From Chrysiogenia bacterium (lineage in GTDB: Bacteria; JAGRBM01), in assembly GCA_020434085.1 (NCBI GenBank), contig JAGRBM010000286.1, positions 1,246-65,245 of the forward strand: a stretch of 64,000 nt of DNA, in the 5' to 3' direction. Positions 36,016-61,485 of the stretch are shown here, one piece after another; within the stretch, counting starts at the first letter, position 1, and every line of letters starts with the position of its first letter. Under the pieces are notes generated by a model, which saw nothing but the letters and a program-made list of their open reading frames with translations, did no database searches and had not been told where the DNA came from. The translations under genes and the position numbers were made by a program.

Positions 36016-36100
36016 GGTCGGATCGATACCTCGCGTGACCAGAGCCCTCCCGCTGGGCCAAGTATATCGGTTGGCTGCGGGAGCAGCGGAGATCAACATG

Positions 36101-37397: not shown

Positions 37398-37452
37398 CAC
37401 CTGGAACCCAATCGACTGAGCCGCCGCTTGCGGCGGGAAGGGAACTTCTACA

Positions 37453-38700: not shown

Positions 38701-38785
38701 CGCTGGAACTGCGCGCGTGTGCAGCCGCACAAAAGTTCCGGTCCGGTGATCGACCGCGAAGGGGAACAATCGAAGGGGAACAATA

Positions 38786-40348: not shown

Positions 40349-40371
40349 GCGACTTACGTGGGGATTATTTC

Positions 40372-41568: not shown

Positions 41569-41576
41569 GCGGACGA

Positions 41577-41978
41577 ATGTCAGTCGGGACGTCCGGGACG
41601 GGTACCCCCTTTTGGGATGCCACCCGGGAAAAGCGCCTTGTTTTGCAATGGTGCAAGGCTTGCGACCGCGCAATTTTCTACCCACGAGATTTCTGCCCGA
41701 ATTGCTTGGGGGAGGAACTGGTCTGGGAAGACGCGAAAGGCACCGGAGTTGTTTATGCCCTTAGCGTCATGCACAAGCCCGGCAATCCTCTAATGGCCCA
41801 GAGAGTTCCATATATCGTCGCGATCATCGAGCTTGCCGAGGGCGTACGTATGCTGTCGACAGTCGTGGGCGACGGACGGATCACTGCAAAGGTAGGCGAT
41901 AAGGTACGGGTTTCCTGGGAAGATCTCAATGATGGTCGCTATCTTCCGGTGTTCGAACTAATCGCTCGGACATCCTGA
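41577..41978 (+). CDS. DUF35 OB-fold / zinc-ribbon protein (thiolase partner)
   Basis: CKACDRAIFYPRDFCPNC zinc ribbon followed by an OB-fold; ATG at 41577, 9 nt after the thiolase stop. Confidence 0.7.
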   Translation: MSVGTSGTGTPFWDATREKRLVLQWCKACDRAIFYPRDFCPNCLGEELVWEDAKGTGVVYALSVMHKPGNPLMAQRVPYIVAIIELAEGVRMLSTVVGDGRITAKVGDKVRVSWEDLNDGRYLPVFELIARTS

Positions 41979-41992
41979 TCAGAGGATATCCC

Positions 41993-43411
41993 ATGCTTCA
42001 TAACCGTGTCATCCGCAGCGTTGTTTCCGTCCTGTTTTTCACCCGTATCCTGATGAGCTACGTCTGGTTCGGGATGGTTACTCAGAAGCGCATTCCCAGA
42101 GGCCAGGGCATGCGACGCAGGGCTTTGGAATCACTGCACGAGATCAATGCAAAGAGAATGTATGGCTATTTTGTTCGCCTGAAGGGCGTATATATCAAAA
42201 TCGGCCAATTCCTCTCCACCCAGGCCGCTTTCTTGCCTCCGGCCTATCTCATTGAAATGGTCAAGATGCAGGATCAAAACCCGATCGCTCATGAGTCGGC
42301 AATTCGCACGCGAATTGTGGAGGAGTTCGGTGCACAACCAGAAGAGATCTTCGCCCGATTTGACGCCGCACCTTTGGCTTGCGCCTCGATCGGGCAGGTT
42401 CACCGTGTTCGACTCAAGGATGGGCGCCAGGCGGTTCTAAAGGTGAAATATCCCGGCATCGACCGGTTCTTTTTTGCAGACCAGAAAGTCGTAAAGCTGA
42501 TGCTGCCCTGGTTTATTCGGATTCTTGAATACGGCCTTTATCAGGAGTCCACCGGCATCAATTACAACGCGCTGATCGACGAATTCGTCAAATACATCAG
42601 CAAAGAGTTGGATTATCGCAACGAAGTACTCAATCAGGAGAGGATGTACGAACAGTTGGAGGGAATGCGCAACAGGCGTATGGTGGCCATTCCACGGCTC
42701 TACAAGGAGTATTGCCGTGACTCCATCATCTGCATGGAGTTCATTGATGCCCTGAAAATAGTGCCGTGGTATACGAACCCCAAAGTCCCCAATCAGAAGA
42801 AAGACTGGATTTTTCGGTGCATGGTCGAGTGCCTGTTCTATACCATTGCGTACCACGGCTTCTTTCAGGCTGACACGCATCCTGGCAATTTTATGGTGCT
42901 GGATGACGATCCGGAGAATCCCGATGTCCCAGCGACACTGGTGATGCTGGATTTCGGGTGCACCAAGGATTTCCCGGAAGGATTCCGCCTCGGGGTTGTC
43001 GAAGTCGTCAATGGATATCTGACGAAGATGCCCGAGAAGATCACTGCCGCGCTGTGGAAACAGGGATTTCGCACCAAGTTACAGACACTCGAATCCCTCG
43101 AATTGTGGGTAACCCAAGGCGTCGGAGTTACAGACGAGATTCTCGGATTCTTTCGGGACGGCACCGATATCGTCGAACACTTGCGCCACAACCTCGCCGA
43201 AATGGCTTCTGAATTTCTTGAACTTCACGACGCTCACCGGATCGCTGCAGTCCCGGAGCATTACGCATTGCTCGCACGCGTGATCGCTACGGCACCGGTT
43301 CCGCTTGAGGAATACATGCCGCGGGTGGATTTCCTGCCGATTGCGCTCACATATGTCAGCGTACTTGCAAGCAAGGCACGCGAGGACTCGCCTCGAGCGG
43401 CCGCATCATAG
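41993..43411 (+). CDS. ABC1/UbiB (Coq8-like) atypical protein kinase
   Basis: IKIGQFLST, ASIGQVHRVRL (Lys region), HADTHPGNFMV catalytic motif. Confidence 0.8.
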   Translation: MLHNRVIRSVVSVLFFTRILMSYVWFGMVTQKRIPRGQGMRRRALESLHEINAKRMYGYFVRLKGVYIKIGQFLSTQAAFLPPAYLIEMVKMQDQNPIAHESAIRTRIVEEFGAQPEEIFARFDAAPLACASIGQVHRVRLKDGRQAVLKVKYPGIDRFFFADQKVVKLMLPWFIRILEYGLYQESTGINYNALIDEFVKYISKELDYRNEVLNQERMYEQLEGMRNRRMVAIPRLYKEYCRDSIICMEFIDALKIVPWYTNPKVPNQKKDWIFRCMVECLFYTIAYHGFFQADTHPGNFMVLDDDPENPDVPATLVMLDFGCTKDFPEGFRLGVVEVVNGYLTKMPEKITAALWKQGFRTKLQTLESLELWVTQGVGVTDEILGFFRDGTDIVEHLRHNLAEMASEFLELHDAHRIAAVPEHYALLARVIATAPVPLEEYMPRVDFLPIALTYVSVLASKAREDSPRAAAS

Positions 43412-43486
43412 CTCATGATACTCCGGCTGGGACCGCCGGGAGTTTGACCATGAATACCAAGCGAACATGCAGGGAGATATAGGCCG

Positions 43487-44602
43487 ATGAGTACAAAGAA
43501 GACCTCGAAAAAGAGTAATAACACCGAGAAAAGACGAGCTTCTACCAAAACGGGCAAACCCGTCGGTTCGCAGCGGGTTCGTGGCAAAACGCTGGTGACC
43601 GGCGCCGCCGGTTTTATCGGCTCTCATGTCGTACGTGAGTTGCTCAAAGAGGGCAGAGAAGTCCGCGCCTTGGTAATGCCCGGAGAGAATCGAAAAAACC
43701 TGGAAGCACTGGATGTCGAAATCGTAGAGGGAAATCTTCTAGAGCCCTCCACTCTCAAACCGGCTGTAACGGGCTGCTCGCGCATTCACCATTTGGCCGC
43801 CATTTATGCGATCTGGCTCCCGCGACGAGAGAAGATGTTCGAAGTCAACTGCATCGGCTCGTTGAACCTTCTCTGGGAAGCCTATCATCAGTCGGTCGAA
43901 AAACTCGTCTTTACATCGTCGATCGCGGCAGTAGGCATCAAGCCCGGCAAGACGCCCGCAAAGGAGGACGACCGATTTAACCAGGTGGCTGCGGCAAACG
44001 ATTACGTCAACTCCAAATGGCTTTCTGAAGAGGAGGCGAAGACCTTTGTTCGCCAGGGAATGGACATTTCGTTCTGCAACCCCGGATTTCCCTTTGGCGC
44101 AAGAGACGTCGCGCCGACCCCGACCGGCCAGATATTGCTCGATATCGTGAATGGGAAGAATCGATTCTACTTTGACGCGGGATTTTCCGCAGTGGACGTT
44201 GAAGATGTGGCACGGGGTCACGTACTGGCTGAAAAACACGGAAAGCCTGGTGAACGCTACATCCTTTCAAATCACAATCTGACGTTCAAGGAATTTTACG
44301 ATTTGATTTCCGACGTGAGTGGTGTTCGGCACAAGGCGAGGAAACTCCCGATCCAGTTCGCCGCTCCCCTTGGTGATTGGCTTGAGCGCCGGGCCGATCA
44401 AACAGGCAAACGGCCTGTGCTGACGGGAAGCGGTATTCGCTATGCGAACAACTACCTGTACTTCGATAACTCGAAAGCGCGCAACGAACTGGGCCTGACA
44501 TTCACGCCGATTGAGGACAGCATCAGACGCGCAATTTCATGGTTTGCGGAGAACCGCTACATCACGAACCAGGAGTTTCTTCGGCGCTACCGGAATTGCT
44601 GA
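43487..44602 (+). CDS. NAD-dependent epimerase/dehydratase family (extended SDR)
   Basis: TLVTGAAGFIGSHVV Rossmann motif; 371 aa. Confidence 0.8.
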   Translation: MSTKKTSKKSNNTEKRRASTKTGKPVGSQRVRGKTLVTGAAGFIGSHVVRELLKEGREVRALVMPGENRKNLEALDVEIVEGNLLEPSTLKPAVTGCSRIHHLAAIYAIWLPRREKMFEVNCIGSLNLLWEAYHQSVEKLVFTSSIAAVGIKPGKTPAKEDDRFNQVAAANDYVNSKWLSEEEAKTFVRQGMDISFCNPGFPFGARDVAPTPTGQILLDIVNGKNRFYFDAGFSAVDVEDVARGHVLAEKHGKPGERYILSNHNLTFKEFYDLISDVSGVRHKARKLPIQFAAPLGDWLERRADQTGKRPVLTGSGIRYANNYLYFDNSKARNELGLTFTPIEDSIRRAISWFAENRYITNQEFLRRYRNC

Positions 44603-45524
44603 CCGACGGGCTTTCCAATCGTGCAGCCACGAGCGACTCGAGTGCTGCCCGCTCATCCTGCGAGTACGGGGTCGGGTCCACGGGCTCCAGGAATCGCACC
44701 TGAATGCGCTCCCTACGAAGGATGTGGCTGCCGCGAGGCAGAGCCCGATCGGCGCCGACGATCCGGATCGGGATAATCGGCGCGCGGGCCTCGATGGCCA
44801 AGATGAAAGCGCCGCGTTTCATCGGCAGCAGGCGTCCGTCCCAGCTGCGTGTGCCCTCGGGAGAGACGAGGATGGAAATGCCCCGTTCCCTCACGTCCTG
44901 CGCTGCTTGTGCAATGCTCCCCCGCCACTGATCTTCGTCGTAGCGATCGACGAGGTAGTGCTGTTGCCTTTTCAGCCACTTTCCATAGAGTGGCATCCGA
45001 CTAAGTTCGACGTTATAGAGACTGCGAAACCGGCGGTCGGCTATGGCACCCAGAATCAGATGGTCGAGATGGCTGGTCTGGTTCCACATGAAAATAGCGC
45101 CCGACTCTGCCGGCGGACAGTTCTCCGTTCCCGAGATGGTCAGCTCCACACCGAGTGCACCGAGCAGTTCCCGGCAAATGTAGCGCTCTCGCTCCACACC
45201 CGGCAGGGCATCGCTTGCGCGAAGGATGGCTGGAAATCTGAAGGCTGCCTGCAACCATGCACGAATGGAATGGATACGTTCCATTGCGGAGTAGCCGGGC
45301 GGTTGCCATCCGAGGGGCGGAAGAATGCCTGCATCACGGGCCTCGGCATCGCTCATGCCGACATCCTTTTGCGGCTGCAGGTGCTTCCAGAATTGCCAAG
45401 CGGGAACACTGGCCCGAACGTGATCGGATTTTTTGTCCATCAGAACTCGACGCCGGTACCAATGATCGGGCCATGGAACCGGTATCTCAACTTCCGCCCG
45501 GGGTGCAGATCGCCGGGAGTCCAA
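44562..45524 (-). CDS. Lysophospholipid/1-acylglycerol-3-phosphate acyltransferase family (PlsC-like)
   Basis: NQTSHLD (HxxxxD) and PEGTRS motifs; the true start may be an internal Met; 41-nt convergent overlap with the upstream epimerase. Confidence 0.7.
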   Translation of the reverse strand: MDSRRSAPRAEVEIPVPWPDHWYRRRVLMDKKSDHVRASVPAWQFWKHLQPQKDVGMSDAEARDAGILPPLGWQPPGYSAMERIHSIRAWLQAAFRFPAILRASDALPGVERERYICRELLGALGVELTISGTENCPPAESGAIFMWNQTSHLDHLILGAIADRRFRSLYNVELSRMPLYGKWLKRQQHYLVDRYDEDQWRGSIAQAAQDVRERGISILVSPEGTRSWDGRLLPMKRGAFILAIEARAPIIPIRIVGADRALPRGSHILRRERIQVRFLEPVDPTPYSQDERAALESLVAARLESPSVSNSGSAEETPGS

Positions 45525-45758
45525 TCAAGAGCGTGACCGGTATCCGGCCCAGATACTCGGGCCCGCGCTTTGCATCTCGAATGCATAGCGAATACTGCCC
45601 TTGAGCGTCAAGACAAAACCATCCCCCACCGATCCCTCCGATCAGCGGCAGGGCGCGATTCCAAGATCGATGATCCCATTGGTTACGTGTGCCAACGAGC
45701 CCATCGGCCTGAAGTAGCGGGAATTCGATCTTGAAAGCCGATTGCCGAATCGGCACTA

Positions 45759-45796
45759 TTGATCAACTTAAATTGATTGATGTGTACGGGTATCAA
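45759..45796. promoter_or_regulatory. Cluster of TTGAT/ATCAA inverted and direct repeats (candidate operator array)
   Basis: TTGATCAActtaaaTTGATTGATgtgtacgggtATCAA, AT-rich in a GC-rich genome, upstream of the acyltransferase gene. Confidence 0.3.
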
Positions 45797-46023
45797 CAGT
45801 CTTTCAATTGGGCCTCTCGGTATCGTCCATCGTCGGTGCATTTTGTGCCGCGTGCCAGTGGAACGGTGCCTCAAATGCCTGCGGTCGCGCACGACCTAAC
45901 CGATGAACGGAAGGGCCGTCCGGGGCGAAATCTACAAGGAAGCGGCCATCTCGCAGCGGTTTCCCGGGGGCAATATGACGGCGTTTGACAAAATTCGCCG
46001 AAGCTTATGGCGGTCACCGGTCC

Positions 46024-47466
46024 CTAGACGCTCGGCAGCTCCACCCAAAAGACCGAACCTTCTCCTGGTTCGCTCTCAACCCAAATGCGGCCGCCGTGCA
46101 TTTCGACAAATCTTTTAACAATCGAGAGCCCGAGCCCCGTGCTGAGTGCATTGCCGATCTTTTGGTTTTCGTGCTTGCGCCTGCGGGCAAGTGCCATAGG
46201 ATCAAAGAGAATGGCTTGCACTTCCGGGGGGATGCCGGTTCCGGAATCCCGCACGGCGATCCGCGCCCTACCTTCTGCCACCCGGGCCAACTCCATCGTG
46301 ATGGTACCTCCTTCGGGTGTGTGAATCACGGCATTCTGGACGAGATTTGTAAACGCCTGGACCAGTTTCGATCTGTCGGCGTAAAAAGCGGGATCGGCGC
46401 CGCAATCAACAAATTTGAGCCTGGTGTTCTTGAGCCTGGCATTGGCTGTCTGGGTTGCTTCGACGTCATGGACAAGGTCCCCGTATGAGAAATGGGAGCG
46501 CGAAAGGACGATTTTCCCCCCTTCCAGGCGGGCAGAATCCAGCAGATTCGAGATCAGTTCCAGCATTCTTTGACTTGCGCCATGAATTTCACGGGCATGG
46601 GTAAGAGCGCTCTCACGTGAGCCATCGAGTTCCATCACCAGGAGTTCGCTGTAGCCTCCCACGGATACGAGTATATTTTTGAGATCATGGGAGCACACGG
46701 CAAGCATTTCATTCTTTGTCTGCACGGCGGCCTCCGCCACCCGACGCCGCAGCTCTACTTCGTACGTAAGCAGACCGGCGCAAAACGCGGATCCATAGTT
46801 GATCATATGAGCTACCAGGAGGACTACAATTGGAAATGTCGGAATGCCATAAAATTCATAGGCCGGAAGCCGATGCCCCAGCAGGGGGGAATAGGGAAGA
46901 ACACCGAAATATTCCAAACTCACAATGAGGGCGTAGGCCCCGGAGCACATGGCCGCATACGCAAGACCCCAGAAAAAATTCAAAAACAGGCTGGCAAGCG
47001 TAACGAGCAAAGGATAGAAAACAACCACCACGCTGGTCAGAGAACCGAAGAGATGAATTGCAAAAGTTATAACGAAGACATCGAGAGCCGCAAGCACCGC
47101 GAAGATCGCTCTGGGCGCTACCCTGAAGAGAATGAGGACGATCAGGATCGCGTTTAGAAAGCTGTAGGCACCCGCGATCGGCAGGTAGTCGTAGAACATC
47201 GGCGCCAGCATGGCTGCCATCAGGAAAGAAGAGAGGATAACGATTCTGGCGAAGGCGGCACGGCGGTACCTCTGATAACCCTCGCGCTCGCCGCCAAACA
47301 AAAAGTAGGCATGCCCGAGAACCGAACGCAGTCGCCCGAGATATCTATCGTAGCGTGAGAGGTCCGCCCAGCGCTCAAGACGTCCGAGGTACCCCTCGAT
47401 ATCCTTTTCGAACTCGGCGAATTCGTCAGCTTTTGTGTCGCCTTGGGGCGTTTCCGGTGTCGGCAT
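46024..47466 (-). CDS. Sensor histidine kinase with a multi-TM N-terminal domain (no cognate response regulator nearby)
   Basis: H-box SHDLKNIL; G1 DSGTGIPPE; G2 GLGLSIVKRFVEMHGG; about 6 N-terminal TM helices. Confidence 0.85.
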   Translation of the reverse strand: MPTPETPQGDTKADEFAEFEKDIEGYLGRLERWADLSRYDRYLGRLRSVLGHAYFLFGGEREGYQRYRRAAFARIVILSSFLMAAMLAPMFYDYLPIAGAYSFLNAILIVLILFRVAPRAIFAVLAALDVFVITFAIHLFGSLTSVVVVFYPLLVTLASLFLNFFWGLAYAAMCSGAYALIVSLEYFGVLPYSPLLGHRLPAYEFYGIPTFPIVVLLVAHMINYGSAFCAGLLTYEVELRRRVAEAAVQTKNEMLAVCSHDLKNILVSVGGYSELLVMELDGSRESALTHAREIHGASQRMLELISNLLDSARLEGGKIVLSRSHFSYGDLVHDVEATQTANARLKNTRLKFVDCGADPAFYADRSKLVQAFTNLVQNAVIHTPEGGTITMELARVAEGRARIAVRDSGTGIPPEVQAILFDPMALARRRKHENQKIGNALSTGLGLSIVKRFVEMHGGRIWVESEPGEGSVFWVELPSV

Positions 47467-47477
47467 ACACGCTTAGT

Positions 47478-48536
47478 CTAGCGTGAAGGGGTAGCCTCGA
47501 AAAGATAGTGACGCCCGTCATCATGGCGTCGGACACGGCCTGCCTCTTCCATAACTTCCAGGTTCCCCAGAAGTTCGCAGGTGGCGAGAAAAAGCTGCAT
47601 TCCAAACGCCTTCGGGAAGAGTCTTTCGGCCAGTTGACGCAGGTTGGAGGGGCCCATCTCGCCCAATGCATTCCATATTTTTTTCTGACGTTTATCATAA
47701 AAAAGGAACAGGGAGTCGATAACCGCCTCGTGCCCGGCGAATGGCAGCCCATGTCCCGGGAGGACGCAGGAGAGGTTCAGCTTGCGCACCCGCTCGATCT
47801 GTTCGAAATAACTGGCCAGAGAGCGGAACTTCAGATTGTAGTCCCTTTCTCCCTCGGGGCCCAAATCAATGAGCGGGTTGGGACTGGTTTCCTGAAGCAA
47901 ATGGTCGCTGGAGAAGATCAGCCCCTGATCAGGTTCGTGATAGCAGACGATCTCACGCGTGTGTCCGGGAGTATAAAGAACTTCGAGCACAAAATCCTGG
48001 AATGGAATCCGGTCCCCTTCCTTAACAAGCGTGACATCACCCTGGATGCAGGGGGCCATGGCTCGCATCATTTCCCCGGAGAGCGCCAGCGTGGCGAACA
48101 CCTGTTCGTCCAGACCGAGACGCAAGAAAAATTCTCTATAAACAGGCTTGCGCTGGGCTACCGCGTCCGTATCGTTGAGAGCAAATGAGTCCACGCTGTG
48201 TTCGCCGATGAATACCTGTGCGCCGGAAAGCTGCCTGACGCGTTCCGCGAAACCGAAATGATCGGGATGGGCGTGGGTAATCAGAATTCTCTCAAACTGA
48301 TCCGGCCGATATCCGATGGCTTCAAGGTAATCTACAAAGACCTTCCAGGCTGCAGGGCTGTTGAGGCCGGCGTCAACGAGAGTGAGCGGTTCTTCGATAA
48401 TGTAGCAGTTGACGGTGGGAACGCCCGGAAAATCGAGCGGCGTCCTTACTTGGTGAATCCCGCGAGGCAAATCCACCTTGTGAGCGATCATTGTGCCCCG
48501 ATCCAGTGGTACTTGTTTCTTCTGGCTTGCATCCAC
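47478..48536 (-). CDS. MBL-fold metallo-hydrolase
   Basis: ITHAHPDHFG motif; paralog of 32929..34017. Confidence 0.8.
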   Translation of the reverse strand: MDASQKKQVPLDRGTMIAHKVDLPRGIHQVRTPLDFPGVPTVNCYIIEEPLTLVDAGLNSPAAWKVFVDYLEAIGYRPDQFERILITHAHPDHFGFAERVRQLSGAQVFIGEHSVDSFALNDTDAVAQRKPVYREFFLRLGLDEQVFATLALSGEMMRAMAPCIQGDVTLVKEGDRIPFQDFVLEVLYTPGHTREIVCYHEPDQGLIFSSDHLLQETSPNPLIDLGPEGERDYNLKFRSLASYFEQIERVRKLNLSCVLPGHGLPFAGHEAVIDSLFLFYDKRQKKIWNALGEMGPSNLRQLAERLFPKAFGMQLFLATCELLGNLEVMEEAGRVRRHDDGRHYLFEATPSR

Positions 48537-48547
48537 GTTGTATCGCC

Positions 48548-49045
48548 CTACGCGGCTGATCTACGGTCAATGTATTGTTGGGTCAAATCGGCTTCCCGGT
48601 CATACATGCCAGCCATGCGGGCCATGTAGAATCGCTCGACGGCTCGCCCCACCAGCCGGACTTCACACTCAAACGATCCCTTGAAACGCCGTATCGTCCC
48701 GCCCCGTCCGTCTGGCTCGTAGAGGGTTTTGCCGTTTAGTTTTCCGATCCGGGCTTCCCCCGAAACCGTCTCAATCATCGTCTCCTTATCGAGAACGTAA
48801 TTCATCTCAAAATAGGGTTCGCGATGCTTGAGGGCCCGTTCGATCCAGGCGGGCAAGTGCAGGTCCGGGTAAACTCGAACAATTTTGCGCCGCTGGGTTG
48901 GAGAGTCTTCGTAAACGAGGCGGTCAGATTGGCGAATTGTTCCCAGGTGCTCAATCAGATATCGGCGAAAGCCGCTATCGTCGATCCAATTGACCAACTC
49001 GATGGGGGGGAGGGGAAAACAGTGTCTGAATTCGAATTCCTGCAT
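48548..49045 (-). CDS. SRPBCC-like (DUF2505-type) protein, paralog of 13323..13820
   Basis: 165 aa; shared motifs with 13323..13820; 4-nt gap to the merR-like gene upstream. Confidence 0.5.
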   Translation of the reverse strand: MQEFEFRHCFPLPPIELVNWIDDSGFRRYLIEHLGTIRQSDRLVYEDSPTQRRKIVRVYPDLHLPAWIERALKHREPYFEMNYVLDKETMIETVSGEARIGKLNGKTLYEPDGRGGTIRRFKGSFECEVRLVGRAVERFYMARMAGMYDREADLTQQYIDRRSAA

Positions 49046-49049
49046 GAAT

Positions 49050-50531
49050 TCATTCCTGCGGCCATGCGCGCTGATAGGCGTATTGGCCGAAATTCGACGC
49101 TGGATCGCGGAGGATCACTTGCTGGAAGGCCTCGTTGGCCTGTTTTTTTTCCCTTTTGAGATCAAAGGCCTCTCCGAGATAAAAGTAGGTATTGACCCGG
49201 TATATCTCGTTGAATCCCTTGAATGGAAGCCCCAGTTGGGCTTCGGTGTGTGTATCGACGATTTCCAGAAGGTCTCTCAGCGCGCCGATTCCCTCGTCTA
49301 CCTGATTGAGAGGCGCCGGAAGAATCGTGTAGGCGCGTCCTTTCATGAGGAGGATTTCAAGACGGTCCTTGAGGCGCCGGGGCGTAAGTCGCAGGCTTTC
49401 CTGGAACAACTGGAGCGATTTATTTAGCCACTGGGCCGGTGAGATGACCCCACCCACCCGCGCGGCCTGCATTAAGTTGGCTATCGCGGCGTAGGCTGTG
49501 GTTCTCGCATCGTGGGGCGCGACTTTGTGCGCTTTGGCGGCCATCTGAACCGCCTCGTCCGTCCGATTAAGAAACGTATCGGCGACGGTTTTGAGTAGCA
49601 TCGCGTCGGAGTCATATTTGTCGTTTTTGAGTATCCGGGTGGCCTGTTCAGCACCCTCTTCGTAGCGCCCGATCGCGAGGTAAGCCTCGGCAAGTCGGAG
49701 CTGCAGATCACGTCTTTGCTTCGCGTCGCCGTCGCGCAGCTGGGTTTCGATCTCTTCAATCTGGGAGGGAATAGCGTGCTTTTCCAAAAATGCTTCACTG
49801 GGGATATAGATCTTCTTTCGCAGTTTTTCGACAGACAGCGGGCCTTCTTCATATGCGCGCTCGAAATGCAGCCGAAGAGCTCGTGTCTTCGCGGCTTCCA
49901 AAAATCGGTTAATGAGTGAATCGATTTCCCCCAACCGTCCCACTACTTCCCGGAAACTGGCGTCCCCGTCAATGGTGTGAATGAGGGCCTTGGATTCCTT
50001 GGTAACGACGGCTTCGATCGGGTTGAGAAGGTCAACGAAGAATTCGACGGGCAGTCCCTTGCTGTGAGCGGTCGAAACGATCCACGCGATTTTCCGTTCT
50101 TCGCCGGAGAGCGGCCCTTCGATGGCGCTGATGAGCCCGGCCTCCGCAAGGTATTTCTGCAAGTCCTCTGGTATTTCAACTTCGGCCGCGGGCTCCGTCG
50201 CCAGAACACCAACGCTGGGCGGAAGAAACCCTTTCCCCTCGGTTGCCCGCTCGAACATGTCAGCCACCAGGCTGAGTTCGAGCGCCTGGGCATCGTAGTT
50301 GCCCTGCTTGAAAAGCTGAGCGATGAAGGCCAGTGGGAGTTTCTTTTCCTTTTGTAGCTTGCGGACGAGTTCGAGAAGCTTGAGATGGTTTTCGTCGTAA
50401 AGGGCCAGTTTTTCGCGTACTTTGCGGGGCGGGGGCAGGATCCCCGCCCGCAAATAGTAGTGGATTGTTTTGCCGGCCACGCCCGCGGCATCTGCCAATT
50501 CTGAAAGTTTAAATTGTTTCTTTTTCGCCAT
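49050..50531 (-). CDS. MerR-family HTH transcriptional regulator fused to a long helical/TPR-like domain
   Basis: N-terminal FKLSELADAAGVAGKTIHYYLRAGIL MerR HTH; 493 aa, with alpha-helical repeats in the rest. Confidence 0.7.
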   Translation of the reverse strand: MAKKKQFKLSELADAAGVAGKTIHYYLRAGILPPPRKVREKLALYDENHLKLLELVRKLQKEKKLPLAFIAQLFKQGNYDAQALELSLVADMFERATEGKGFLPPSVGVLATEPAAEVEIPEDLQKYLAEAGLISAIEGPLSGEERKIAWIVSTAHSKGLPVEFFVDLLNPIEAVVTKESKALIHTIDGDASFREVVGRLGEIDSLINRFLEAAKTRALRLHFERAYEEGPLSVEKLRKKIYIPSEAFLEKHAIPSQIEEIETQLRDGDAKQRRDLQLRLAEAYLAIGRYEEGAEQATRILKNDKYDSDAMLLKTVADTFLNRTDEAVQMAAKAHKVAPHDARTTAYAAIANLMQAARVGGVISPAQWLNKSLQLFQESLRLTPRRLKDRLEILLMKGRAYTILPAPLNQVDEGIGALRDLLEIVDTHTEAQLGLPFKGFNEIYRVNTYFYLGEAFDLKREKKQANEAFQQVILRDPASNFGQYAYQRAWPQE

Positions 50532-50605
50532 GGCCTCAAAAATACCACGAGTTCAAATAGTTATGATGCGCGCCCGGTCCCTTGCCCCGTGCAGTATAAT
50601 CCAGC

Positions 50606-50638
50606 CCTTGACGGCGAATCAAGGATAGTGTTTACTAT
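50606..50638 (+). promoter_or_regulatory. MerR-type promoter: TTGACG -35 and TACTAT -10 with a 19-bp spacer, overlapped by the inverted repeat CCTTGA-N7-TCAAGG
   Basis: Read directly; lies between the divergent merR-like gene and diiron paralog 5. Confidence 0.5.
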
Positions 50639-50714
50639 ATTTGTAGTCGGATGGGCGTTTTCCGGGGTCTTTCCCGGAGTGCCTCAATGGATACGGAGCA
50701 AAGGAGCGACTCTT

Positions 50715-51647
50715 ATGGCGGAGCTAGTTCAAAGAGCAACTCGTGAGCAACTTACCAAGGTGGATGCCAGTGACAACATTTACAAGGTGGACCTGTGGCT
50801 CAAGACGGCACCGCAGGGCTATCTCGTCAAGACCCGTTACGGAAAATACGAGGACCGGCCAATCGAAGAGAATCCCCTCCTTTTTGAAGAAGGGGATCTG
50901 CGGGACCAGCAGCTGATGACCCTCGCTCATTTCGTGGTGGGGGAGCGGGCGGCCCTCCTCTCGGCAGCGGGCTGTATTCCCCGTGAGCCTGACCATGCGG
51001 CGCGGGCGTTTCTCTCGACCCAGACGGCTGATGAGGGGCGGCATGTGGAGGTCTTCTCCCAGCGCCTCTTCGACCTGGGGGTAACCAGGGAACAGTTTGA
51101 GGACTTTCTCGACAGCTGGACCAATCCCTATCTCAAAAAGTTTTGCCTTGCCCTCGAAGACCTCGTCAAGAATGGCGATTACGTCGCTGCCATCGTTTGC
51201 AACAATATCATTCTGGAGGGGCTCGCTTTCAGCGTCTTTGAGTTCTCCCGCGGGATAAGCCAATTCATGGATCCCGTTGGCGAGCAGGTGCTCTGCGGCG
51301 TCATCGCCGACGAGCGTCGGCACGTCGGTTTTGGGGAAAATCATCTTGCAAAACTCGTGGCCCGTTTTCCCGAAAGCAAGCGTAAAATCGAGAATGCCCA
51401 GAAGGAACTGTCCGGGTTCATGATGGCCAGCTTCAAGAGCATGCTCAGCAAGTTTGGATCAGTTATGAATCGGACGATCGGCGAATACAAAGAAGTTCTT
51501 GGCGATTTCGAGCCGTATCCGGGAATCAAGCTTGGTCGCTCGAACTCCGAAGATCTGATGGGCGCAATGTGGACCAAGATGGAGCGGGAGTTCAAAGACC
51601 GTCTCACCCGGATCGGCGTGGATTACCAAGAGCCGTACCAGAATTAG
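50715..51647 (+). CDS. Ferritin-like diiron-carboxylate protein, paralog 5 (310 aa)
   Basis: ATG at 50715 with an AAGGAG RBS; GERAAL...TADEGRHVEVF and EGLAFSV...ADERRHVGFG motifs. Confidence 0.7.
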   Translation: MAELVQRATREQLTKVDASDNIYKVDLWLKTAPQGYLVKTRYGKYEDRPIEENPLLFEEGDLRDQQLMTLAHFVVGERAALLSAAGCIPREPDHAARAFLSTQTADEGRHVEVFSQRLFDLGVTREQFEDFLDSWTNPYLKKFCLALEDLVKNGDYVAAIVCNNIILEGLAFSVFEFSRGISQFMDPVGEQVLCGVIADERRHVGFGENHLAKLVARFPESKRKIENAQKELSGFMMASFKSMLSKFGSVMNRTIGEYKEVLGDFEPYPGIKLGRSNSEDLMGAMWTKMEREFKDRLTRIGVDYQEPYQN

Positions 51648-51708
51648 CCCTTCCTCAACGGATCCGGTCGCCGATGCCCATACATTGCGGATCAAGTGAG
51701 GGTAGAAG

Positions 51709-53781
51709 ATGTCCCAGGATATCAGCACAAAAGCGCGGAGCCACAAGCACCCGCTGAAAATTGCGCCGCCTAAGAAGATCCCTGTCCATGTCGGCGAAGA
51801 CGCCGATGAGACCGTTACCTTGGAAGGCCTGGCCCCCCACGTTGAACTCCCCGAGGGACTGGCGTTCGATAAGTCGAAGTTTGATTCGGTTGGGACGGGA
51901 GCCGGCCATCCCCCCCTGAAGGTGCCTCCGCCGCCAAGGCCCAAGGCCGCCAAGCGTCCGCCCCTGTCTCCCCCGGCTGCCTCACCATCCGCTTCGGACA
52001 CAGCACATGACGGAGAAGAAGAGGTCATCATTGAGCAGCGTCGTCCGAAGGAAAAGAAGGTTGTAGGCGGTCGCCTGCAGAATCCAGACGCACTGGCCCG
52101 GCTGGAACCACCCGATTTCTCCGCAATTCCGCCGGATCCTGAGGTACACGTCCCCTCCAGACTCCGGGCAGATCCGCAGCGGCTCGTGGAAATTGCGCGT
52201 GTGCTATTCCGCCACGGCCTCGGGTTTCCCCTGGAATGCGTCCGGGGCAGGAACTCGCGCAAGGCCCTTGCCCGGCGGTTGCGCCTGGCTTTTGAAGAGC
52301 TGGGTCCGACCTTTATCAAGCTGGGGCAGATGGTGGCGTCGAGTCCCGGAATTTTCCCAAGGGAAGTATCCGATGAATTCCTCAAATGCCTCGATAAGGT
52401 CCCCGCGTTTCGGTTTTCGGAAGTAAAACGCATTCTTGGGGACGAGCTCGGACCCGGTTGGGAGGCCCGATTTCAGAAGATCGAGGCCGTTCCGGTTGCT
52501 GCCGCAAGCATCGCCCAGGTCCACTTCGCCGAATTGGCCGACGGCACGCCTGTCGTCATCAAAGTGCAGCGACCGGGCATTCAAAAGGTCATTGAGCGGG
52601 ATCTCGGAATTCTGTTTTTGCTGGCGAAAGGGCTTGTGCGTGCCTTCGAAAATGCCCATCTGGCCAATCCGGTGGGAATCGTCTCGGATTTCAATCAGAC
52701 GCTGCATGAGGAACTCGACTTCCGACTGGAAGCCAACAGCATGGAGCGGTTCAATGCGGTGTTTTCCTCTGCTGGAGACAAGCGCATCTATGCGGCCCAA
52801 GTGTACCGCGAACTTACCACGAAACGCATCTTGGTGATGGAGCGGCTACATGGCGCCCGGGTGGACGACCTCGATTCGATTCGAAATCTTGGTGTGGACC
52901 CTGAAGACGCTCTCCGCCTCGGAATCAAGGCAGTTCTTCGTACGATGATGTTGCATGGATTTTTCCATGGCGATGTGCATGCGGGCAATCTCCTCATCAC
53001 CGCAGATGCCGGCGTCCATTTCATGGATTTCGGAATCGTCGGCAGGCTCGACGACGAGCGAAGTAAACGCGTCACTCACCTTCTGGTTTCGCTCATGGCG
53101 GGCACTTTCGAGAACCTGGCCGACGTGCTCATGAAGCTGGGTACTACAAATGCAAAGACCGACCGGATTCAGCTGAAGGATGATCTGAAGAACCTGCTGG
53201 GACAGTTCAAGGACACGGCGCTTGGTGCGCTCAACTTCGGAGACCTGCTGACCGCCGTCGTCAAAGCAGCCGTACGGAACCATGTGCGCCTTCCGCGAGA
53301 GTTCGTTCTACTGGTGAAACAGATAGTTTACTTCGACCGCTACGCCCACGTTCTTGCTCCCGATCTGAATATATTCGACGACCGTTTCTTGATCGATTTC
53401 CTGTGGCGTGACCCGCTGGGTCGAAAACGATTTCCGCAGATGCAGATGATCGGCATGCTTGGAAATGTCCGCTCCATCAAGGATCTTCGCAATAATCGCC
53501 GGCGCTCTTTCGACGAGCTTCCGGAGCGGTACAGGGGGAAATACCGATACTGGGATGGCTCTCCCCTTCAGCCCAATGAGCTCCAGTGCGTTGTCTGCAA
53601 CATCATCGTGATTGCCAAACGCCCGTTTCAGGTCGGAGACAGGGTGTTCTGTCAACCCTGCGGCACCAAAATGGTGGTGATCGAGAAGGAAGGAAAACTC
53701 ACGGCCGAACCGATTTATTCCCAAGAAGCGCAGGCATCCTTCCGGATAACAGAGGGTTTGCAGGAATTCGCGCCGATCTGA
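51709..53781 (+). CDS. ABC1/UbiB (Coq8-like) kinase with a Pro-rich N-terminal extension and a C-terminal Cys-rich (zinc-ribbon-like) tail
   Basis: [35 protein letters not shown]1 motifs; C-terminal CVVCN...CQPCG. Confidence 0.8.
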
Positions 53782-53808
53782 GAATTCCATTACTGGGGGA
53801 TTACGGAA

Positions 53809-54684
53809 ATGCTTGATCTGGAATCGCTGCTGGAGAAGTCCCACGCGGGTCAGTGGTCGGTCGCTGATTTCGATTGGGAAACGCCGTTTCCACCGGGGCT
53901 GCCGATCAGTGAGCGCAAGCGCCAGCTGCTGGGAAGAGTCCTGCTTTTCACTGCAGGGGTTGAACGTTTGGGCGCCTACGCATTTCAGATTAACGCCCGG
54001 AACTCGATGCACCCGACCGTCCGGGAGCTCTTCGAGGTCATCGCAAAAGATGAGTTCCGGCACGCGGAGGCTGAGACTCTTCTGGCGAGACGGCTGGGGG
54101 TCGAATGGAAAGATCTGCCGTGGCTCATGCGCCGGGCCTTCAAGGTGCTCTCGCACGACCTGCGGAAACTGAAGGGAGTACGAGGTCGCCTCTTCCACGA
54201 AATCGTGGGGACCCAGATCGTCCTGTTCGAACTTGGACTCGATTCGCTTTGGAGTCCGACGGTCCGGGAGATGATTGACGATCCGTTCCAGAACGAGATT
54301 ATCCGCATGATCGACCGCGATGAATCACGGCATCTGGCCATGGACTACTGGTTGCTCGAACAGAAGGGCACGGGTACTGACCGCACTTCGCTCAATGCGC
54401 GGCGAATTCTAGCCAACCTTCCCTTGCGCCTTTCGTCGGCAGCACTGGGAGCGGGCGCATTCCTGACGTTTTTCTGGAGTGTCCGGAACCTCGAAATCTC
54501 ACCCGAACGATTTGATGACTACTGGACTCGCGTACAGGCAATCGTCGACAAATCGCCGCACGCGCGCAGATTTCCGCCGCATCGCACGACGGTGGGTCTG
54601 ATAGACGCACTTGTGAACTTTTTCGACGGAAATAAGGCAGCATTCAAGGGATTTATGCTTCTGGTGACAGGACGAAATATTTAG
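53809..54684 (+). CDS. Ferritin-like diiron-carboxylate protein, paralog 6 (291 aa; group A)
   Basis: GQWSVADFDW; AKDEFRHAEAE; DRDESRHLAMDYWLL. Confidence 0.7.
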   Translation: MLDLESLLEKSHAGQWSVADFDWETPFPPGLPISERKRQLLGRVLLFTAGVERLGAYAFQINARNSMHPTVRELFEVIAKDEFRHAEAETLLARRLGVEWKDLPWLMRRAFKVLSHDLRKLKGVRGRLFHEIVGTQIVLFELGLDSLWSPTVREMIDDPFQNEIIRMIDRDESRHLAMDYWLLEQKGTGTDRTSLNARRILANLPLRLSSAALGAGAFLTFFWSVRNLEISPERFDDYWTRVQAIVDKSPHARRFPPHRTTVGLIDALVNFFDGNKAAFKGFMLLVTGRNI

Positions 54685-54693
54685 ACGGAGGAA

Positions 54694-55431
54694 TTGTCCA
54701 TGCGTACCGACAGCGATCTTTACGCGATCAGGCCCGGGCAGGCGCTCGATGCCGCCATAAAGGGAATGAAAAATCCTGATGATACCAAGCAGGCTGCGCG
54801 GATGGTTGAGGCATTGCAGGGAAGATCTCCTCTGCGCATGCTTCAGCGCGTCAAGCGCAGCAGCAAGGGGCGCCGCCTGCTGCAGGAAAGGCCCGATCTG
54901 CTCTCGGCGCTCAAGGACGCCAAGTGGTTGGCTTCCCTGCCCGAGGGTACCTTGGGCCGTGAGTATTACGAGTTTTGCCAGCGCGAGCAGCTCACCCCCG
55001 GAGGACTGGATGAAGCCGTGGCCGAGGGGTTTGATCGTTCACGTCTGGAGCGCATGAGCGAGGACGAGCAGTTTCTGCAGACGTGGATGCGTGATACGCA
55101 CGACCTCTACCACGTGTTGACAGGTTACGGAACCGATCTGCTCGGAGAATTGGGCGTCCTGACCTTTACCGCGACACAGACCAGGAATCCGGCAATCTGG
55201 TTCATGGTGCTCGTAGGTGGAACGGTGTTTGCGGCCAGAGGGCATGCGAACCCGAGGCTGTTTGCGGGCGCAATCTGGCGGGGGCTCCGCGCGCGCTCGA
55301 TCATCACGCCGAATTGGAAGAGGCTTCTTGAACAGCCCTTGTCGCAGATTCGCCGGGAACTGCGCGTCCCCCAGCCCCCGCGATACAAACCGGCCTACAC
55401 AAGCCTGGACCGGTCGGCGATGCAGCTATAG
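54694..55431 (+). CDS. Coq4-family protein (ubiquinone-biosynthesis Coq4-like)
   Basis: HDLYHVLTGYGTDLLGE matches the Coq4 zinc motif HDxxH-x11-E. Confidence 0.65.
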   Translation: MSMRTDSDLYAIRPGQALDAAIKGMKNPDDTKQAARMVEALQGRSPLRMLQRVKRSSKGRRLLQERPDLLSALKDAKWLASLPEGTLGREYYEFCQREQLTPGGLDEAVAEGFDRSRLERMSEDEQFLQTWMRDTHDLYHVLTGYGTDLLGELGVLTFTATQTRNPAIWFMVLVGGTVFAARGHANPRLFAGAIWRGLRARSIITPNWKRLLEQPLSQIRRELRVPQPPRYKPAYTSLDRSAMQL

Positions 55432-58262: not shown

Positions 58263-58266
58263 GTTT

Positions 58267-59106: not shown

Positions 59107-59124
59107 AGCAGCAAGACCTCCGGT

Positions 59125-61470: not shown

Positions 61471-61485
61471 TTCCGTATTCGCTCA

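Follow-up and report, generated by a model that had tools for sequence, protein, structure and literature searches.

A conserved and portable bacterial gene module that couples a UbiB/COQ8-family protein with a Coq4-family protein and diiron proteins away from quinone-biosynthesis genes

The DNA analysed here, a stretch of 64,000 nucleotides referred to as the window, carries a conserved, portable gene module in which a UbiB/COQ8-family protein (ABC1#2) is encoded together with a Coq4-family protein, two ferritin-like diiron proteins (diiron310 and diiron291) and a cytochrome P450 (Table 1). Reasoning from related systems, we tentatively favour the reading of an inducible system for oxidising a membrane lipid, in which O2-dependent metalloenzymes would receive their substrate from an ATP-driven lipid chaperone. 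Proteins of the CoQ type are poorly understood, and because this rare conserved operon couples Coq8-, Coq4- and oxygenase-type genes while CoQ genes are absent nearby, it could serve as a test case for how such proteins cooperate.

Table 1. Positions in the window of the features discussed in the text
Feature	Position	Strand	Evidence or remark
Diiron291 paralogue	30604-31500	-	
Diiron291 paralogue	35014-36099	-	
Beta-oxidation-type operon	36285-44602	+	ABC1#1 is gene 6
ABC1#1, UbiB family, 472 aa	41993-43411	+	PF03109, E 8e-51
Sensor histidine kinase, downstream of the MBL gene	46024-47466	-	HisKA + HATPase_c
Metallo-beta-lactamase-fold (MBL) hydrolase, divergent unit	47478-48536	-	PF00753, E 8e-21
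DUF2505 protein, divergent unit	48548-49045	-	PF10698, E 1e-10; kept in L002, L003, L087, L090
MerR-HTH + TPR regulator, divergent from operon	49050-50531	-	PF13411, E 1.3e-13, + TPR matches
Divergent promoter-like site	50622 to 50593	-	Overlaps operon promoter
MerR-style operon promoter	50608-50638	+	-35 TTGACG, 19-nt spacer, -10 TACTAT; read from sequence
Diiron310, ferritin-like diiron-carboxylate protein, 310 aa; operon gene 1	50715-51647	+	VlmB-homolog/R2lox/ADO type
ABC1#2, UbiB/COQ8-family ATPase-like, soluble, 690 aa	51709-53781	+	PF03109, E 1e-64, domain residues 228-471
Zinc-ribbon-like core of ABC1#2 tail, residues 627-651	53587-53661	+	CxxC-x17-CxxC, invariant in orthologues
Diiron291, ferritin-like diiron-carboxylate protein, 291 aa	53809-54684	+	Family without Pfam model
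Coq4-family protein	54694-55431	+	PF05019, E 1.7e-29, 103 bits vs cut-off 22.9
Coq4 metal motif, residues 136-152	55099-55149	+	HDLYH-x11-E
Cytochrome P450, closing gene of operon	55453-56699	+	PF00067, E 1e-32

The module recurs in four other metagenomic lineages (L001; L002/L090/L091; L003; L087/L088), while a fifth (L089) carries it without Coq4. The diiron310-ABC1 pair, with diiron310 always directly upstream of ABC1#2, was the invariant core across all carriers, and its presence without Coq4 in L089 indicates that Coq4 is not essential to this core. An earlier note on this DNA had hinted at a functional trio of Coq8-, Coq4- and Coq7-like proteins; ABC1#2 does form a tight recurring operon with Coq4 and the pair of diiron genes, but ABC1#1, the first of the two kinases named in that note, belongs to a separate operon, and Coq4 is dispensable in one variant. 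Seven module genes were retained in L087 amid unrelated neighbours, so that the module behaves as a unit. Since no Baeyer-Villiger monooxygenase (BVMO) or beta-oxidation gene was found within 10 kb of the L087 module, the catabolic link is frequent rather than obligatory: orthologues of BVMO, aldehyde dehydrogenase and MBL genes lie alongside the module in L001 and L090, BVMO and aldehyde dehydrogenase genes in L002, and BVMO and MBL genes in L089. The carriers, inspected at these loci, are without exception uncultured MAGs or metagenome contigs.

Elsewhere the linkage was not encountered. None of 80 other bacterial Coq4 loci had an adjoining ABC1 or diiron gene (three had an ABC1 gene 5-9 kb off), no diiron or Coq4 gene was seen near any of 80 other ABC1 loci, and more distant diiron310 relatives showed no ABC1 linkage. 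The ABC1-Coq4-diiron linkage is clade-specific and atypical of the Coq4 and ABC1 families.

The operon runs in the order diiron310, ABC1#2, diiron291, Coq4-like gene and P450 gene, all co-directional, with intergenic gaps of 61, 27, 9-15 and ~21 nt. The 19-nt spacer of its promoter contains the dyad CCTTGA...TCAAGG, and the promoter core was invariant in an alignment of the four loci of the window, L003, L002 and L087. To judge from known MerR promoter architecture, the operon would be under MerR-type control. Orthologues of the MerR/TPR regulator (60-84% identical) occupy the same position in L002, L003, L087 and L090, where the MBL-fold hydrolase is also found (68-85% identical); in L089, the MBL gene is located within the operon instead of in the divergent unit. 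L002, L003 and L090 also carry the sensor histidine kinase gene, which L087 lacks.

Both ABC1/UbiB proteins announced in the earlier note were recovered by profile search, and the unusual termini that it ascribed to the second were confirmed. The N-terminal extension of ABC1#2 (approximately residues 1-180) holds 28 prolines (15.6% versus 4.1% elsewhere in the protein), and the "Cys-rich" tail consists of four cysteines (C627, C630, C648 and C651) that are invariant in six orthologues. This tail had no matching Pfam family, and when the tail alone was searched against 1.84 billion representatives, a single ABC1-sized 50%-identity cluster (P0259) was recovered, the other matches being stand-alone proteins of ~100 aa and one 3214-aa repeat protein. 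The motifs KLGQ204, AAASIAQVH264, K285, ELDF335, HGDVHAGN420 and DFG440 were likewise invariant in the six orthologues, and no transmembrane segment was found in ABC1#2. ABC1#2 is best read as a UbiB-family ATPase that is soluble and would be catalytically competent. Assignment of either kinase as a UbiB equivalog was rejected, as ABC1#2 and ABC1#1 scored 325 and 176 bits against the TIGR01982 cut-off of 487.55 bits.

ABC1#1 is 25% identical to ABC1#2, carries the motifs KIGQ69, ACASIGQVH129, LKVKYPG149, ELDY205, ADTHPGN293 and DFG320, and has an N-terminal hydrophobic segment (residues 6-29). Its operon comprises, in order, two ACAD genes, an acyl-CoA ligase gene, an SCPx-type thiolase gene, a DUF35 gene, ABC1#1 and a 3beta-HSD/FAR-like reductase gene. 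L001 has a 68% orthologue at a distance of ~5 kb from its module, and partial orthologues occur in L090 and L091. ABC1#1 is presumably a separate, membrane-anchored paralogue with a similar substrate-handling role in this beta-oxidation-type operon.

The Coq4-like protein retains the intact HDxxH-x11-E motif that had been claimed for it, and its H136, D137, H140 and E152 were invariant in an alignment of 27 bacterial sequences. Its sequence matched PDB entries 3MSQ (1.6e-11) and 6E12 (Alr8543; 7.7e-10), and orthologues 64-71% identical adjoin ABC1#2 in L001, L002, L003, L087 and L090. The open reading frame opens at a TTG (54694), and NCBI places the start of this gene at an ATG (54700; 243 aa), which is probably the true start codon. 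Similarly, the start codon of diiron310 is most likely an ATG at 50715, giving the 310 aa of its orthologues, rather than at the TTG at 50514 of the originally listed reading frame.

Diiron310 and diiron291 each carry an E...ExxH...E...ExxH ligand set, invariant across their respective families. The diiron proteins reported earlier are real, but the suggested likeness to Coq7 was rejected in favour of a VlmB-homolog/R2lox/ADO-like affinity. The nearest structural relative of diiron310, 6D9F, is annotated with aldehyde-deformylating activity, and R2lox binds long-chain fatty acids. The P450 gene, which the earlier note did not mention, is broken by a frameshift in a C7 run (55745-55751), a homopolymer visible in the sequence; in tblastn, the intact 416-aa L003 orthologue aligned in two different frames, with residues 4-101 and 100-416 respectively. 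The operon contains neither a ferredoxin nor a reductase gene that could serve its diiron enzymes and P450.

The surroundings correspond to the hydrocarbon/lipid oxidation island described before, with two FMO-like/BVMO proteins and a third flavoprotein oxidoreductase, seven ferritin-like proteins, an aldehyde dehydrogenase, ACADs, an SCPx-thiolase/DUF35 pair and an MMPL/LolA-like/DUF1302 block. This catabolic island is low in GC. The reported absence of a quinone-pathway context also held: Pfam scans of the likely genes of the whole window revealed no UbiA-type prenyltransferase, UbiE/UbiG-type methyltransferase, UbiD/UbiX, Ubi-type flavin hydroxylase or men gene, and thus no ubi or men gene at all.

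The ATPase COQ8 draws CoQ precursors out of membranes and supplies the COQ metabolon with them (PMC13418538). Acting like its mitochondrial counterpart, ABC1#2 might hydrolyse ATP in order to draw a very hydrophobic lipid, embedded in a membrane or droplet, out of the bilayer and pass it to the O2-dependent metalloenzymes of the same operon. These partners would be the Coq4-type binuclear-metal enzyme (whose eukaryotic counterpart is an oxidative decarboxylase of a prenylated aromatic acid), the two ferritin-like diiron oxygenases of ADO/R2lox/VlmB-homolog type, and the P450. The earlier idea of a scaffold extracting hydrophobic substrates would agree with this recent COQ8 biochemistry. Most likely, the module would act, when induced, to oxidise or catabolise a lipid whose head group is aromatic, isoprenoid or long-chain, and it would feed the enzymes of the surrounding Baeyer-Villiger monooxygenase, esterase, aldehyde dehydrogenase and beta-oxidation genes. 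Against this reading stand the lack of a ferredoxin or reductase gene in the operon, the L087 module with its different surroundings, and the loss of Coq4 in L089.

Alternatively, albeit improbably, the module could form another biosynthetic route to a benzoquinone or prenyl-phenol lipid, with the prenyltransferase and methyltransferases encoded elsewhere. A Coq4, two diiron oxygenases and a UbiB-like protein match in number the O2-dependent steps by which the ubiquinone ring matures. COQ4 itself catalyses an O2-dependent oxidative decarboxylation at C1 and has a binuclear metal site and a hydrophobic tunnel (PMC10680789). Coq4 would then perform this C1 step in place of UbiD/UbiX and UbiH, ABC1#2 would take the UbiB role, in keeping with its near end-to-end match to the UbiB model (positions 40-416 of 436), and the ring hydroxylations that remain would fall to the two diiron proteins, alone or together with the P450, in the functional role of Coq7. 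The neighbouring DUF2505 protein, which may have a lipid-binding fold, would also fit. However, UbiA, UbiG and UbiE are absent from the window and from every related locus, an inducible MerR-type promoter and a low-GC catabolic island are unlike housekeeping cofactor synthesis, L089 does without Coq4, and the diiron proteins are unrelated to Coq7. Moreover, bacterial Coq4 homologues were also found in Myxococcota, Spirochaetales and cyanobacteria, which are not known as ubiquinone makers.

The MerR-type control with its conserved operator would also suit a membrane-lipid damage or stress-response module, which we consider distinctly improbable. The MerR/TPR protein would serve as the sensor of a lipophilic or oxidative signal, the ABC1 ATPase would extract oxidised lipids or lipid aldehydes, and the ADO-like diiron enzymes, MBL-fold hydrolase and Coq4 would detoxify them. 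In its favour, the structural relatives closest to diiron310 include aldehyde-deformylating enzymes, conservation of the MBL and DUF2505 genes strictly follows that of the regulator, the L087 module stands alone, remote from catabolic genes, and ABC1K proteins of plants and cyanobacteria are tied to stress and lipid droplets (PMC12223511). Nevertheless, BVMO, aldehyde dehydrogenase and esterase-type catabolic genes accompany the module in four of six lineages, no peroxidase, glutathione or thiol component was recognisable, and no evidence indicated an inducer.

It is more doubtful still that the ABC1 proteins are regulatory protein kinases that phosphorylate neighbouring oxygenases or regulators instead of handling lipids, as claimed for some plant ABC1K proteins. 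Precedent comes from AtABC1K6, reportedly a Mn2+-dependent kinase (PMC8956952). The full set of kinase-like catalytic motifs is intact in both ABC1#1 and ABC1#2, and the Pro-rich extension and zinc-ribbon tail of the latter could mediate protein-protein interaction. In COQ8, however, the KxGQ domain and Ala-rich loop block the cleft for protein substrates and bias the protein towards ATPase activity, and both elements are conserved here. Recently, COQ8A and COQ8B have been assigned ATPase and lipid-chaperone activity (PMC13418538).

Finally, there is very little likelihood that these are ordinary ubiquinone accessory genes in a catabolic island by chance, with the rest of the pathway elsewhere and the diiron adjacency incidental: CoQ biosynthesis is the best-known setting of both families and our view covers loci rather than whole genomes, but the UbiB equivalog scores are far under the cut-off, the TM-less, extended and zinc-ribbon-tailed architecture of ABC1#2 is unlike UbiB, gene order is kept across lineages despite the modest Coq4 identity, and linkage occurred in none of the 160 control loci.

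Compared with E. coli UbiB, ABC1#2 shows 28% identity and lacks the single transmembrane segment of the E. coli protein, while the ubiE and ubiJ neighbours present in E. coli are missing here. Taken with the preferred reading of an ATP-driven chaperone supplying lipid oxidation, this points to a role other than housekeeping ubiquinone synthesis, with a putative mechanism derived from COQ8 and COQ4.

One of the two UbiB-family proteins encoded in the window (ABC1-2, 690 aa), a Coq4-family protein and two ferritin-like proteins (diiron310 and diiron291, of 310 and 291 aa, respectively) were found to be encoded in a single conserved operon that ends with a P450 gene. The earlier note had regarded both UbiB-family kinases, Coq4 and the diiron proteins as a single unit, and this held for ABC1-2, Coq4 and the diiron genes, while the other UbiB-family protein (ABC1-1, 472 aa) is encoded in a separate operon. 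The P450 gene is split by a one-base frameshift within a run of seven C. Because the 416-aa P450 orthologue on a JGI metagenome contig (L003) is intact, this frameshift may be an assembly or homopolymer error, or else the gene may be a recent pseudogene.

Coordinates (window positions) of the operon, its promoter region and related features of the island
Feature	Position	Strand	Remark
Island of lower G+C	~18000-62000		
Diiron family B (diiron310 family) member	24313-25590	-	26-27% identity within family
Diiron family B member	25828-27018		
Diiron family A (diiron291 family) member	30604-31500	-	37-40% identity within family
Diiron family A member	35014-36099	-	
ABC1-1 operon	36285-44602	+	two acyl-CoA dehydrogenases (ACAD), acyl-CoA ligase, SCPx-type thiolase, DUF35, ABC1-1 (6th), 3beta-HSD/FAR-like reductase
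Thiolase ORF	40372-41568		as listed
DUF35 ORF	41508-41978		as listed
ABC1-1	41993-43411	+	472 aa
Promoter-like site	50622 to 50593	-	
Dyad CCTTGA...TCAAGG	50606-50624		
-35 element TTGACG	50608-50613	+	
-10 element TACTAT	50633-50638	+	
diiron310 (family B)	50715-51647	+	then 61-nt gap
ABC1-2	51709-53781	+	then 27-nt gap
ABC1-2 tail (residues 545-690)	53341-53778	+	
diiron291 (family A)	53809-54684	+	then 9-15 nt gap
Coq4	54694/54700-55431	+	TTG-start ORF (54694) or second start option (54700); then gap of ~21 nt
P450	55453-56699	+	last gene of operon
Seven-C run in P450	55745-55751		frameshift
DUF1302/LolA-like/MMPL/TetR block	56898-62112	-	directly downstream of operon

The divergent intergenic region upstream of the operon (183 nt) contains a –35 and a –10 element separated by a 19-nt spacer, with a dyad, a putative operator, lying across the –35 element and the spacer. 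The gene diverging from the operon encodes a MerR-HTH regulator (PF13411 match), and the region fits a MerR-type divergent operon, for which a 19–20 nt spacer with a dyad operator is expected. MerR-activated promoters classically show such an arrangement of TTGACG, 19-nt spacer, dyad and TACTAT. The promoter core is invariant in the window and in the related contigs L003, L002 and L087, while its flanks have diverged, and the promoter-like site on the minus strand overlaps the plus-strand promoter. By analogy with known MerR systems, this layout argues for ligand- or stress-inducible expression of the operon.

The G+C content is 52–58% between ~18 kb and 62 kb versus 60–66% outside, and the flanks carry housekeeping-type genes (FolE2, NUDIX, MCP and GGDEF), which suggests that this island was horizontally acquired. 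As the earlier note had proposed in describing a lipid-oxidation setting, the island is dense in oxidation genes. Three flavoproteins are encoded there, two of the FMO-like/Baeyer-Villiger monooxygenase type (BVMO) and one further oxidoreductase, together with a PF10118 protein, an aldehyde dehydrogenase, an SDR, two metallo-beta-lactamase-fold (MBL) hydrolases, three acyl-CoA dehydrogenases, an acyl-CoA ligase and a PlsC-type acyltransferase, as well as an SCPx-type thiolase paired with DUF35 and a 3beta-HSD/FAR-like reductase. The absence of quinone genes was likewise confirmed: when the likely genes across all 64 kb were compared with Pfam, none encoded a prenyltransferase, a methyltransferase of ubiquinone or menaquinone synthesis, UbiD/UbiX or a flavin hydroxylase of the Ubi type. 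This non-quinone, inducible-type, catabolic-island setting is new. The block downstream of the operon comprises genes for a DUF1302 outer-membrane protein, a LolA-like protein, an MMPL/RND-type transporter and a TetR regulator, for which uptake or export of hydrophobic compounds is a plausible role; L003 has orthologues of the LolA-like (93%) and DUF1302 (87%) proteins.

Co-occurrence of UbiB-like and Coq4-like genes with diiron genes, which the earlier note had suggested surveying in other genomes, indeed recurred in a 'Deltaproteobacteria' MAG (L001), in L002/L091 and the near-identical L090, in L003, and in another MAG (L087/L088). All of these contigs share diiron310 (83–96% identical), followed by ABC1-2 (66–84%) and Coq4 (64–71%), and diiron291 (60–66%) follows in all but L003, which carries the P450. 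A 290-aa ORF after the P450 in L003 was considered as a diiron291 orthologue and rejected, as it is unrelated and probably an outer-membrane protein. Upstream and divergent from the operon lie genes for the MerR-HTH/TPR regulator, a DUF2505 protein and an MBL-fold hydrolase (together with the operon referred to as the module), and a histidine kinase gene comes after this divergent unit in three lineages. The unit was not seen in L001, whose contig breaks off immediately upstream of the operon. In L087, the seven module genes stand amid genes for an unrelated ABC transporter, a radical SAM protein and a P-type ATPase, indicating that the module moves as a unit.

A variant on contig L089 (positions 1148–6602 of that contig) has the order 4HBT thioesterase–diiron310–ABC1–MBL–diiron291-like, with neither Coq4 nor the MerR/TPR unit; a TetR gene and two FMO-like genes come next. 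What stays constant throughout is the diiron310–ABC1 pair, and Coq4 is frequent but facultative. L001 and L090 carry, along with the module, orthologues of the window's BVMO, aldehyde dehydrogenase and MBL, with BVMO and aldehyde dehydrogenase found in L002 and BVMO and MBL in L089; none of these three island orthologues accompanies it in L087. The conserved operon linking these families is new, its clade is narrow, and its carriers are uncultured.

Outside this clade the co-occurrence disappeared, and the ABC1–Coq4–diiron linkage is specific to the module rather than a property of the families. An ABC1 or diiron310/291 gene was adjacent to Coq4 in 0 of 80 other genome loci in GTDB species representatives (relatives 34–49% identical, among the matches listed), the nearest approach being an ABC1 gene 5–9 kb from Coq4 in three Sphingomonadales loci. 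Three more Coq4 loci inspected gene by gene had Coq4 alone or, twice, beside a TetR gene. Likewise, a diiron or Coq4 neighbour was found at none of 80 other metagenome ABC1 loci (31–41% identical, retrieved with the generic pattern FE[EQ]LGPTF, among the matches listed), and the metagenome scan that supplied these loci, made with an alignment of ABC1-2 orthologues, yielded no new module copies among the matches listed. Distant diiron310 relatives (43–48% identity) were not ABC1-adjacent at the two loci concerned. Bacterial Coq4 loci number at the least more than 521 among GTDB species representatives, and homologues occur in Myxococcota, Spirochaetales, Sphingomonadales, Rhodobiaceae and Halieaceae. 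Tandem Coq4 duplicates are present at two loci (L031 and L055), and a P450 gene lies ~3 kb upstream of Coq4 in several Sphingomonadales. Neither a described bacterial ABC1–Coq4 cluster nor a characterised bacterial Coq4 was found in the searchable literature.

Both kinases that the earlier note had read as ABC1/UbiB proteins belong to PF03109, as ABC1-2 scored 218.5 bits (E 1e-64) and ABC1-1 173 bits (E 8e-51) against a Pfam gathering threshold of 22.9. Both also possess the UbiB-family motif set (KxGQ, Ala-rich loop, catalytic Lys, Glu, HxDxHxGN-type loop and DFG), in the form of KLGQ204, AAASIAQVH264, K285, ELDF335, HGDVHAGN420 and DFG440 in ABC1-2, where they are invariant across six orthologues, and of KIGQ69, ACASIGQVH129, LKVKYPG149, ELDY205, ADTHPGN293 and DFG320 in ABC1-1. 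The two proteins are 25% identical to each other. Placement inside canonical UbiB, which the earlier note had considered, was contradicted by the equivalog profiles: ABC1-2 and ABC1-1 reached 325 and 176 bits with TIGR01982 (cut-off 487.55) and 239 and 140 bits with NF003404 (cut-off 667). Identity to E. coli UbiB is 28–29%, with 28% for ABC1-2. This placement rests on the NCBIfam equivalog cut-offs, pairwise identities and architecture; adjacency to ubiE/ubiJ, used as a label in the kinase tree, occurred only at the E. coli locus, and no UbiE/UbiJ homologue was found beside either kinase or in any module locus. A crude Kyte-Doolittle scan revealed a hydrophobic segment at residues 501–520 of E. 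coli UbiB, none in ABC1-2 and only an N-terminal one (residues 6–29) in ABC1-1, so that neither kinase has the C-terminal membrane anchor of E. coli UbiB.

The two extensions previously noticed in ABC1-2 were borne out as well. Residues 1–180 contain 15.6% Pro versus 4.1% elsewhere, and this N-terminal extension is variable in length with conserved islands (PLKIPPP..HVG, EEE-(V/I)IIEQ-(K/R)RP and DPDAL), while the C-terminal tail, with four Cys as CxxC-x17-CxxC, is almost invariant in the orthologues. A search with the last 146 residues against 1.84 billion cluster representatives returned a single ABC1-sized protein with the tail, the other matches being stand-alone proteins of ~100 aa and one 3214-aa repeat protein, which indicates that the architecture, and hence the module, is rare. 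The stand-alone homologues (P0260–P0265) are 36–48% identical to the tail over 70–75 residues, and the tail is repeated ~15 times in the 3214-aa protein; neither the tail nor its stand-alone homologues matched any Pfam family above noise. Judged from sequence, this combination of a Pro-rich arm with a zinc-ribbon-like tail is a new architecture.

The Coq4-family assignment stood as well (PF05019, 103 bits versus a cut-off of 22.9, E 1.7e-29, model positions 17–221 of 221). Its HDxxH-x11-E zinc motif is present as HDLYH-x11-E at residues 136–152 and is invariant in an alignment of 27 bacterial sequences. Structural matches by PDB sequence were 3MSQ and 6E12, both cyanobacterial Coq4-like proteins. 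The deposited Coq4 protein begins two residues after the start of the TTG-start ORF.

The likeness to Coq7 that the earlier note had attributed to the diiron proteins was not upheld: neither diiron310 nor diiron291 matched PF03232 at E ≤ 0.01 or an NCBIfam Coq7 model, and COQ7 was not their closest structural neighbour. They do show the ferritin-like four-helix-bundle core with ligands E, ExxH, E and ExxH. Neither showed Pfam or NCBIfam membership above cut-offs, and the diiron291 family is without any model. Seven proteins of the island have the paired ExxH motifs of ferritin-like diiron enzymes, and six of them fall in two families, which, being without models, are new. The seventh is the PF10118 protein. 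These seven proteins sit at 23361–36099 and 50715–54684, within ~31 kb, where the putative diiron proteins are interleaved with the two FMO-like/BVMO flavoproteins and the third flavoprotein oxidoreductase. Such a density of putative O2-activating enzymes is unusual, and neither a reductase nor a ferredoxin was identified as their partner. By their sequences, the parts are assigned to known superfamilies (ABC1, Coq4 and ferritin-like diiron).

ABC1-1 is encoded in a beta-oxidation-type operon, and represents a second, independent UbiB-family protein in a catabolic setting. L001 has an orthologue (68%) at a distance of 5 kb from the module, and another is located at the edge of L090/L091; in L001 and L090 this orthologue faces an MBL–4HBT–aldehyde dehydrogenase–FMO operon instead. 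The thiolase and DUF35 ORFs upstream of ABC1-1 overlap by 61 nt as listed, and the true DUF35 start is probably located further downstream than listed.

These data could tentatively be read, with a likelihood that we place just short of even, as a set of O2-dependent metalloenzymes fed by an ATPase and oxidising or catabolising an environmental or membrane lipid. ABC1-2, driven by ATP, would extract and chaperone a very hydrophobic substrate, which would then be modified by O2-dependent enzymes, namely Coq4, both diiron proteins and the P450; and the MerR/TPR regulator would switch the whole unit on. The island context and the inducible-type promoter favour lipid oxidation or catabolism over housekeeping cofactor synthesis. 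Gene content, motifs, folds, conserved gene order, linkage specificity and promoter anatomy are observed; ATPase activity and lipid extraction, physical hand-off, reactions, substrate and direction (catabolic or biosynthetic) we infer by analogy with characterised relatives.

An oxidative decarboxylase, two diiron oxygenases and a UbiB-like protein might also account for the O2-dependent steps of benzoquinone ring maturation. However, biosynthesis of a quinone or prenyl-phenol is unlikely given that UbiA, UbiG and UbiE are in no locus, that the promoter is of the inducible type, that Coq4 is lost in L089, and that Coq4 homologues occur in lineages not known as ubiquinone makers. MerR control, the ADO-like enzymes and the solitary module of L087 would all suit a response to membrane-lipid damage, which we nevertheless deem rather improbable, and a role of the ABC1 proteins as regulatory protein kinases appears quite improbable. 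That an ordinary UbiB and Coq4 are at work here, with the remaining pathway encoded elsewhere, is contradicted by the equivalog scores, by the architecture and by the conserved, clade-specific operon, and has very little likelihood.

A bolder and doubtful proposal is that the operon forms a self-contained bacterial counterpart of the COQ metabolon. In this proposal, a soluble UbiB-family ATPase would dock via its zinc-ribbon tail and Pro-rich arm on a Coq4-type oxidative decarboxylase and on two diiron hydroxylases from families not described before; a prenylated or long-chain aromatic lipid would in this way have its head group matured or dismantled, with neither a flavin hydroxylase nor UbiD/UbiX taking part. 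If true, a bacterial Coq4 and a bacterial ABC1 protein other than UbiB would here, for the first time, be assigned direct partners and a class of substrate on genetic grounds. To our knowledge, the ancient and widespread UbiB/COQ8 family has essentially no assigned function outside CoQ synthesis. With one ABC1 ATPase-like protein, Coq4, two diiron proteins and one inducible-type promoter, the operon offers a compact and genetically defined system in which to ask whether UbiB-family ATPases deliver lipids to particular partner enzymes, what metal a bacterial Coq4 uses and what reaction it performs, and what roles the two ferritin-like families and the zinc-ribbon-like tail play. The COQ8-like/Coq4-like pairing should be notable and experimentally useful for CoQ/UbiB specialists, and the operon shows that an annotation as 'Coq4' or 'UbiB' should not be taken to indicate ubiquinone synthesis.

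Among known systems, the bacterial UbiB of the E. coli ubiE-ubiJ-ubiB locus shares its ATP-binding and hydrolysis motifs with ABC1-2, whose domain aligns over almost the full model length, but it differs from ABC1-2 in the low identity and sub-cut-off scores, the C-terminal TM segment and the neighbouring genes. Mycobacteria, which host bacterial UbiB-family ABC1 proteins, lack ubiquinone. Their ABC1 structures (MABP-1, PDB 5YJZ; 7CY2) are the best PDB sequence matches of both kinases (E 1e-22 to 1e-26); COQ8A/B match both about equally well. The kinases reach only 87–112 bits with the NF050082 model (cut-off 800) and differ from the mycobacterial proteins in architecture and gene context. The module diiron proteins are 13–21% identical to the VlmB-homolog/R2lox/ADO group, and we know of no member of that group encoded beside an ABC1 protein. 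Cyanobacteria are without ubiquinone, and their Coq4 proteins Alr8543 (PDB 6E12) and an Npun protein (PDB 3MSQ) share family and metal motif with the module Coq4, at a sequence match of only E 1e-10 to 1e-11. ABC1 or diiron linkage is not reported for these homologues, and none of the 80 loci of the wider family has it. The structure of 6E12 reveals a hydrophobic tunnel with a lipid-like ligand adjoining a binuclear metal site (PMC10680789).

The closest parallel is offered by the mitochondrial COQ metabolon (COQ3–COQ9), in which COQ4 acts as an O2-dependent C1 oxidative decarboxylase of a prenylated 4-hydroxybenzoate derivative, with a hydrophobic tunnel next to its binuclear metal site (PMC10680789). 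Unlike that assembly, the module has no prenyltransferase, methyltransferase, flavin hydroxylase or COQ9, its diiron proteins are not Coq7 homologues, and its operon, of putatively inducible type, lies in a catabolic island; moreover, the Pro-rich extension and zinc-ribbon-like tail of ABC1-2 are undescribed for COQ8, and the PDB sequence matches between the kinases and COQ8A/B reach only E 1e-14 to 1e-22. Like COQ8A/COQ8B (ADCK3/4), however, the module's ABC1 protein has the KxGQ motif, the Ala-rich loop and the catalytic K/E/D/N/DFG residues, and, as in the metabolon, a Coq4 with an HDxxH-x11-E site is found alongside diiron-carboxylate proteins and a very hydrophobic substrate would be expected. 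COQ8 is an ATPase that draws insoluble CoQ intermediates out of membranes and passes them on, via loose contacts, to the COQ metabolon, and the division between ATPase and oxygenases that we propose for the module would be the one shown for COQ8 (PMC13418538).
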